Of a DNA stretch of 9,806 nucleotides, positions 9,100 through 9,806 are shown piece by piece. Position 1 is the stretch's first letter, and each line of letters opens with the position of its first letter. Under the pieces are notes generated by a model. The model ran no database searches and had not been told where the DNA came from. It saw only the letters and a list, made by a program, of their open reading frames with translations. The position numbers and the translations under genes are program-made. Origin of the DNA: Escherichia coli. GTDB taxonomy: Bacteria; Pseudomonadota; Gammaproteobacteria; Enterobacterales; Enterobacteriaceae. The stretch lies in the NCBI RefSeq assembly GCF_003334355.1, contig NZ_QOWP01000058.1, one strand, 5' to 3'.

Positions 9100-9648
9100 A
9101 TGAAACGTTCAATTATTGCTGCCGCTGTCTTTTCTTCTTTTTTTATGAGCGCTGGAGTATTTGCTGCAGACGTTGATACCGGAACATTAACTATTAAGGG
9201 GAATATTGCAGAATCTCCGTGTAAATTCGAAGCGGGTGGTGATTCAGTAAGTATTAATATGCCGACTGTACCAACCACTGTCTTTGAAGGTAAAGCTAAA
9301 TATTCTACCTATGATGATGCAGTCGGTGTAACCAGCAGCATGTTAAAAATTAGCTGCCCGAAAGAAGTTGCTGGTGTAAAACTCTCGTTGATTACCAACG
9401 ATAAAATAACCGGTAACGATAAGGCGATAGCCAGTAGCAACGATACCGTGGGTTACTATCTCTATTTAGGTGATAACAGCGATGTCCTGGATGTTTCTGC
9501 ACCTTTTAACATTGAGAGTTATAAAACAGCGGAAGGTCAATATGCTATTCCGTTTAAAGCAAAATACCTGAAACTGACAGATAACTCAGTGCAATCAGGT
9601 GATGTGTTATCTTCTCTGGTTATGCGGGTGATGCTGCCAACTTACTGA
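9100..9648 (+). CDS. yehD: Fimbrial major subunit YehD (type 1 pilin family) with its 3-prime end interrupted by IS1; the final 6-7 codons and the stop codon are IS1-derived
   Basis: Signal peptide MKRSIIAAAVFSSFFMSAGVFA followed by a mature pilin-like sequence with the conserved N-terminal Cys (GNIAESPCKF) and a second Cys (KISCPKE). The reading frame runs into the IS1 terminal repeat at 9627 and ends ...LVMRVMLPTY at a TGA inside IS1 (9646-9648). Native coding sequence is 9100 to about 9626. Confidence 0.85.
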   Translation: MKRSIIAAAVFSSFFMSAGVFAADVDTGTLTIKGNIAESPCKFEAGGDSVSINMPTVPTTVFEGKAKYSTYDDAVGVTSSMLKISCPKEVAGVKLSLITNDKITGNDKAIASSNDTVGYYLYLGDNSDVLDVSAPFNIESYKTAEGQYAIPFKAKYLKLTDNSVQSGDVLSSLVMRVMLPTY

Positions 9649-9649
9649 T
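9627..9649 (+). repeat. IS1 left terminal inverted repeat (IRL)
   Basis: GGTGATGCTGCCAACTTACTGAT, the characteristic ~23-bp IS1 terminal repeat. Confidence 0.85.
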
Positions 9650-9681
9650 TTAGTGTATGATGGTGTTTTTGAGGTGCTCCA

Positions 9682-9806
9682 GTGGCTTCTGTTTCTATCA
9701 GCTGTCCCTCCTGTTCAGCTACTGACGGGGTGGTGCGTAACGGCAAAAGCACTGCCGGACATCAGCGCTATCTCTGCTCTCACTGCCGTAAAACATGGCA
9801 ACTGCA
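9682..9806 (+). CDS. insA: IS1 InsA (transposition repressor / N-terminal transposase segment), first 41 codons; truncated by the window end
   Basis: GTG start at 9682 preceded by GAGG. Translation (M)[40 protein letters not shown] matches the InsA zinc-finger N-terminus. Absent from the ORF track because of the GTG start and window truncation. Confidence 0.85.

Follow-up and report, generated by a model that had tools for sequence, protein, structure and literature searches.

Our results show that yehD, the gene for the major subunit of the Yeh (gamma4) chaperone-usher fimbriae of Escherichia coli, has been joined close to its 3′ end to a copy of IS1. The stretch of DNA analysed here (the window) is the entire E. 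coli draft contig QOWP01000058.1, 9806 bp long, from assembly GCA_003334355.1, whose sister assembly is GCA_012461265.1. In the small lineage to which this contig belongs, the left end of the insertion sequence (IS) IS1B follows directly after nucleotide 527 of yehD, while the closest complete relative carries the empty site, and the Yeh operon has very probably been inactivated. The yehD-IS1 junction is genuine. Since IS1 is so widespread, yehD::IS1 adds a new allele to a familiar class of events, and it exemplifies the ordinary decay, through IS elements, of a core fimbrial operon that is usually silent.

Positions 78-9630 of the window are collinear with K-12 MG1655 (98.6% identity), the gene order being yehI′, a WGR/DUF4132 gene (yehF/yehH in K-12), metG, mrp/apbC, yehE and yehD. 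Both contig termini lie in repeats, IS10/ISVsa5 at 1-77 and IS1 at 9627-9806, and one junction of each is visible. The IS1 part (plus strand, same orientation as yehD) begins GGTGATGCTGCCAACTTACTGAT, and 180 of its 180 bases are those that open a complete 768-bp IS1, annotated as IS1B family, in the genome PSS-12, where this variant has both of its ends. The window covers 23% of the element, and this visible part is without differences: the first 180 bases, the terminal repeat at the junction and the insA zinc-ribbon open reading frame (ORF) are all shared with IS1B. The native 3′ end of yehD, in K-12 as in PSS-12, reads ...atg cgt gtg gcg cag gat taa, whereas the window reads ...atg cg|g gtg atg ctg cca act tac tga. 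Since the two diverge after cg, the host DNA ends at 9626 (yehD nucleotide 527 of 543) and IS1 runs from 9627 to the end of the contig, which terminates within the element.

The left terminal inverted repeat of IS1 is found at 9627-9649 (plus strand), at the boundary with host DNA; these limits we take from established knowledge of IS1. It provides the chimeric ORF with the third base of codon 176 and with everything that follows, namely V177, codons 178-182 and the stop. The IS1 left terminus adjoins host DNA in the same way at nine other loci. Some 55 bases inside the left end starts the 5′ part of insA (9682-9806, plus strand, 41 codons), which encodes the zinc-ribbon DNA-binding domain of the IS1 transposase/inhibitor and is cut by the contig end. 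This ORF matches NCBIfam NF050000, the IS1/IS1595 N-terminal zinc-binding domain (43.5 bits, cut-off 28), and also Pfam PF03811 (Zn_ribbon_InsA). The nine bases before the junction, GGTTATGCG (9618-9626, plus strand), would be expected again after the IS1 right end if the insertion was a simple one. The original prediction, made from the letters of this DNA, had placed the IS1 left repeat from 9627 inside yehD, had pointed to the nine bases at 9618-9626 and had described the arrangement as unlike that of K-12. All of this was borne out: IS1 identity begins where host collinearity stops, the nine bases are read in the window as predicted, and the K-12 yehD is uninterrupted.

The chimeric yehD ORF occupies 9100-9648 on the plus strand (182 codons and the stop). 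Its native part, 9100-9626, comprises nucleotides 1-527 of the gene and is 100% identical to yehD of PSS-12, while residues 178-182 (MLPTY) and the TGA are encoded by the IS1 left end. Note that the first IS1 bases happen to restore codons R176 and V177, and residues 1-177 are those of native YehD (WP_000830468.1 of PSS-12). The chimera therefore ends ...LVMRVMLPTY and has 182 residues, compared to the 180 residues and ...LVMRVAQD of the native protein. The predicted chimeric C-terminus closed by an IS1-internal TGA is thus what the ORF translates to, and comparison with the uninterrupted gene defines the lost codons as those of the last three native residues, AQD. The gene keeps orthology and synteny with K-12 b2111 (metG-mrp-yehE-yehD). 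The best match of its product is the equivalog NCBIfam NF011766 (E = 1e-32; 113.4 bits, below the curated cut-off of 136), and Pfam Fimbrial matches it weakly.

Among NCBI draft assemblies, 10 contigs encode exactly this 182-residue protein, and the sister contig, L004, which is 112 kb long and has three mismatches to the window, continues into IS1 as far as IS1 position 261. Together, these two observations rule out a one-off mis-join. We did consider an assembly artefact, in which the end of a yehD contig was wrongly joined to a collapsed IS1 repeat, since this short-read draft contig has a repeat at either end. However, different assemblies carry the identical product, the sister contig reaches further into the element, and the break coincides with base 1 of the IS1 terminal repeat, precisely where a real transposition would place it, making such an artefact extremely improbable.

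When a 120-base junction probe was searched against 5,426 complete E. coli genomes, the yehD-IS1 junction was present in none of them, and the best matches were either two-piece joins or belonged to another event. Of these genomes, PSS-12 comes closest to the window (2 mismatches over 9,549 bases), and in this genome yehD is uninterrupted and followed by yehC. Given the empty site in PSS-12 and the absence of the junction from the complete genomes, yehD::IS1 is recent and restricted to a small lineage. Literature searches on yehD and IS1 yielded no account of this allele, and those on the source assembly were likewise negative.

What would the new tail do to the pilin? Conservation of the YehD C-terminus and general knowledge of chaperone-usher systems suggest that binding to the chaperone is probably weakened by the changed and lengthened tail. 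Sixteen orthologues from E. coli, Citrobacter and Superficieibacter (60-99% identity) end RV[AS][QE]D, the chimera being the sole exception. In a family alignment of 29 members, reaching down to 21% identity, each sequence has exactly 3 residues beyond V177, and 26 of the 29 close with D, E or N. The chimera departs from this conserved V-x-x-[D/E/N] tail, reading V-M-L-P-T-Y and running on for 5 residues past V177. Note that uninterrupted, full-length orthologues all keep the 3-residue tail, so RVMLPTY is not a native ending. A PDB sequence search with YehD returned only weak pilin matches that stopped short of the C-terminus, and the family alignment and an AlphaFold2 model were used in its place. 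In this model, which has a mean predicted local distance difference test (pLDDT) score of 83, and of 89 over residues 171-180, the last strand is formed by residues 174-178.

In the empty-site relative, YehC belongs to the PapD/FimC type of chaperones and carries both Arg8 (GIVIYGTR in the mature protein) and the Lys of RIKLFYRP. In the classical case, the subunit carboxylate is anchored by Arg8 and Lys112 of PapD. As in known C-terminal pilin mutations of PapD-like systems, the change in the chimera would bear on how the last strand ends and on where the terminal carboxylate lies. Such mutations reportedly include those of the penultimate tyrosine of K99 FanC and the C-terminal truncations of PapG. 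In contrast to these designed mutants, the YehD chimera is a natural swap of five residues for three, and YehD is without the penultimate tyrosine motif of the gamma1/pi pilins. Classical chaperones hold the C-terminal carboxylate of the subunit through two conserved basic residues (PMC4654587). The MLPTY tail is two residues longer and adds a proline straight after the last beta strand. The last strand of the pilin would pair with the donor strand of the chaperone, and the clamping of the carboxylate by Arg8 and the RIKLFYRP Lys of YehC would then probably be shifted or blocked. A subunit with this tail would probably be poorly bound by the chaperone and then degraded. That even a small C-terminal replacement may affect function, as originally proposed, is therefore plausible, given the invariant tail length, the predicted strand at 174-178 and the anchoring of the carboxylate (PMC4654587).

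Two features of the tail weigh against this reading: strand residues 174-177 are unchanged, so residual chaperone binding is possible, and residues 178-179 are variable among family members. Together with the persistence of the allele in about 10 assemblies differing by few single-nucleotide polymorphisms, they would fit a functionally neutral change, in which the MLPTY-tailed YehD is still chaperoned and polymerised and the downstream genes are expressed by read-through or from within IS1. Nevertheless, we judge neutrality very unlikely. IS1 is classically polar in both orientations, and none of the 29 family members departs from the length of three residues after V177, with the preference for D, E or N at the end. 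In addition, the anchoring of the carboxylate is register-sensitive (PMC4654587), and, with the operon being silent under most conditions (PMC3559732), a knock-out allele would be expected to persist as well.

The structure downstream of the junction was approached by comparison with other IS1 copies at the locus. Nine IS1 copies in yehD, yehC or yehB of complete genomes were mapped at both flanks; all share one orientation by the design of the search. Four of the nine are simple insertions with 8-9-bp duplications, namely those of AHB24 (NZ_OZ546956.1; yehD 512-520), SCU-106 (yehD 24-32), 63-2 (yehC 238-245) and EC812A1 (yehC 275-282). Another four are deletions of 240 bp to 3.8 kb: the ST540 group (yehC 108 to 349), PSS-12 (yehB 2094 to 2429, 334 bp lost, with the IS1 at 18429-19196 of its locus, L006), B27 (yehC 165 to yehA 755) and the DA33133 group (yehC 567 to yehA 999). 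The last one, in 200088, is an inversion in which yehC 357 is joined to inverted yehH.

The AHB24 event resembles that of the window most closely in position, lying 7 bp upstream of it at the yehD 3′ end, in the same orientation and with an ORF that likewise finishes inside the IS1 left repeat. It is nevertheless an independent event: the host DNA ends at yehD nucleotide 520, the 9-bp duplication CTTCCCTGG and an intact yehC are visible, and the background differs (96% identity). As occurs in the window, the deletions of PSS-12, the ST540 group, B27 and the DA33133 group have the IS1 left end adjoining yeh coding sequence in the same orientation, with the operon inactivated. In them, however, both flanks are visible, while the window shows the left flank only.

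The original prediction had gone further, to a whole 768-bp IS1 standing between yehD and intact yehC, yehB and yehA, and hence to probable polarity on these genes. This is not supported as stated. The contig ends 180 bases into IS1, and insB′, the right repeat, the target-site duplication and yehCBA lie beyond the window. In empty-site relatives, yehC, yehB and yehA are present downstream of yehD. Our analysis makes it about an even proposition that the 768-bp IS1 sits between yehD and intact yehCBA. By simple transposition, it would lie between yehD nucleotide 527 and nucleotide 519 onwards, with GGTTATGCG duplicated, and yehCBA would be silenced by polarity only. The right flank would then consist of the IS1 right end (…AAGTTGGAGTCATTACC) followed by GGTTATGCG-TGTGGCGCAGGATTAA-yehC, that is, GGTTATGCGTGTGGCGCAGGATTAA. 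In support of this, the four mapped simple insertions are of this type, the AHB24 event left yehC intact, and the yehB::IS1 chimera is private to PSS-12, so the IS1 of PSS-12 need not be ancestral. Against it stand the five of the nine local IS1 events that are without a duplication, and the fact that yehC is not visible within the window. Neither the IS1 right end, nor the duplication, nor yehCBA was found by protein look-ups or metagenome scans. A scan of Joint Genome Institute (JGI) metagenomes for the right junction, modelled as the IS1 right end, a gap of 0-12 bases and the yehD tail, gave 0 matches, a result that is uninformative because the left-junction control also gave 0 matches. As to the protein look-ups, the exact look-up of the empty-site YehC allele (more than 52,000 blocks) had only intact loci among the matches listed, and that of the RcnA product ended in a contig-edge partial call, uninformative for the right junction.

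The other structure that we weighed, with a chance somewhat short of even, is an adjacent deletion or inversion mediated by IS1, in which a copy previously established in the yeh operon (such as that of PSS-12 at yehB nucleotide 2094) attacked yehD with its left end. In the deletion version, about 2.9 kb would be lost (the yehD tail, yehC and most of yehB), or else a segment would be inverted; there would be no duplication, and yehC and yehB would be missing or displaced. For a deletion from a PSS-12-like copy, the expected right flank is CAATCACCTTCGGTAAAGAG (yehB nucleotide 2429). The yehB IS1 of PSS-12 has the same orientation as that of the window and identical first 180 bases, already has a 334-bp deletion alongside, and by one adjacent deletion would yield exactly the junction seen in the window. 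Moreover, five of the nine IS1 events at the locus (the ST540 group, PSS-12, B27, the DA33133 group and 200088) carry deletions or an inversion, so the downstream genes may be partly absent or displaced here too. The exact look-ups also returned no yehB product attributable to the yehD::IS1 assemblies: the two contigs carrying full-length YehB V122G have the operon intact and belong to an unrelated background (98.6% identity), and the chimeric, truncated yehB′::IS1 product of PSS-12 matched PSS-12 only. However, exact-match look-ups miss variants that differ by one residue, and the missing YehB is weak evidence. Likewise, the identity over 180 bases marks no single copy, since IS1B is identical in hundreds of genomes, and a yehB::IS1 seen only in PSS-12 is a better fit to a private than to an ancestral event.

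Two further candidates were rejected. Derivation from the common yehC::IS1 of the ST540 type does not hold, its background having 13 mismatches in 3 kb and its IS1A differing at position 127. The T at IS1 position 127 also failed as a copy-specific marker, being the widespread IS1B sequence. Separately, the YehB V122G allele of PSS-12 (L006 16335-18428) is also present, with an intact operon, in the locus L028, which belongs to an unrelated background (98.6% in the flanks); the allele therefore does not single out the PSS-12 lineage.

Under either downstream structure, the Yeh operon is very probably non-functional. IS1 is classically polar. The yehCBA genes would be cut off from the yehD promoter by a polar IS1, or would have been partly deleted or rearranged when the junction formed. 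In the empty-site relative, a terminator-like hairpin (GGCCGCTATCCCATGGCGGCC and TTTTAATTT) lies directly after native yehD, in the yehD-yehC spacer (L006 15602-15622). This tempers the part assigned to IS1, since downstream expression may rely on read-through and be low even without the element. As in other fimbrial operons, this hairpin may set the ratio of the subunit to the assembly genes. Yeh is a core-associated gamma4 fimbria that is intact in 92% of surveyed strains and disrupted in the rest, and it is described as functional but cryptic (PMC3559732). Its filaments were observed only under forced expression (PMC7098969). As a marker, the yehD-IS1 junction cleanly identifies a small E. 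coli clone; it has little importance beyond strain typing. There is also a lesson in method: a contig that ends within an IS shows one junction, and insertion with polarity should not be assumed from it, because about half of the IS1 junctions at the yeh locus carry deletions or inversions.

Of the 5,426 complete genomes, 4,971 carry IS1, at a median of 11 places each, and a single IS1 copy therefore says little. As to the original suggestion of an IS1-rich lineage, the close relatives SC516 and CFSAN051542 have at least 40 copies each. At least 10 independent IS1 junctions were counted in yehD, yehC and yehB, comprising that of the window, the nine mapped ones and, in addition, the N-terminal chimeras P0017 and P0083. 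In these last two, the YehD products have foreign N-termini translated from an IS1 left end in inverted orientation, and they represent further independent insertions in the 5′ part of yehD. The counts raise the idea that the yeh operon is a recurrent IS1 target, convergently inactivated in IS1-rich E. coli lineages, which we put forward tentatively and consider rather unlikely. The recurrence could stem from a preference of IS1 for AT-rich, H-NS-bound DNA; the GC content of the yeh genes is 39-46%, compared to 50-54% for the neighbouring housekeeping genes. It could also stem from selection against Yeh expression, and the MLPTY-tailed pilin could be a poisoned subunit. If selection, and not target preference, drives the recurrent hits, these would be informative on the cost of Yeh fimbriae.

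Some other features of the window and its relatives deserve a comment. At the opposite end of the contig, positions 1-77 are the terminal 77 bases of IS10/ISVsa5, and yehI is cut after codon 322; the resulting ORF (40-1044, minus strand) is a yehI′ that ends in about 12 IS-encoded residues. The IS10 insertion in yehI is found neither in the sister contig nor in any of the 5,426 complete genomes and is therefore younger than yehD::IS1. Next to it, at 1054-4848 on the minus strand, lies an intact gene of 1264 codons with WGR and DUF4132 domains, which in K-12 MG1655 is split into yehF and the pseudogene yehH (the molR region). Just past yehE, a perfect 36-bp palindrome (AAAGCCGAAATCATTTATATAAATGATTTCGGCTTT, 8837-8872) is followed by a T-run and looks like a two-way terminator, and the spacer between it and yehD has a GC content of 25%. 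Finally, the YehD of Shigella flexneri (P0020 and P0035, on more than 1000 contigs) has 174 residues, with an in-frame deletion of 6 residues (GYYLYL) in the middle of the pilin and the native C-terminus.
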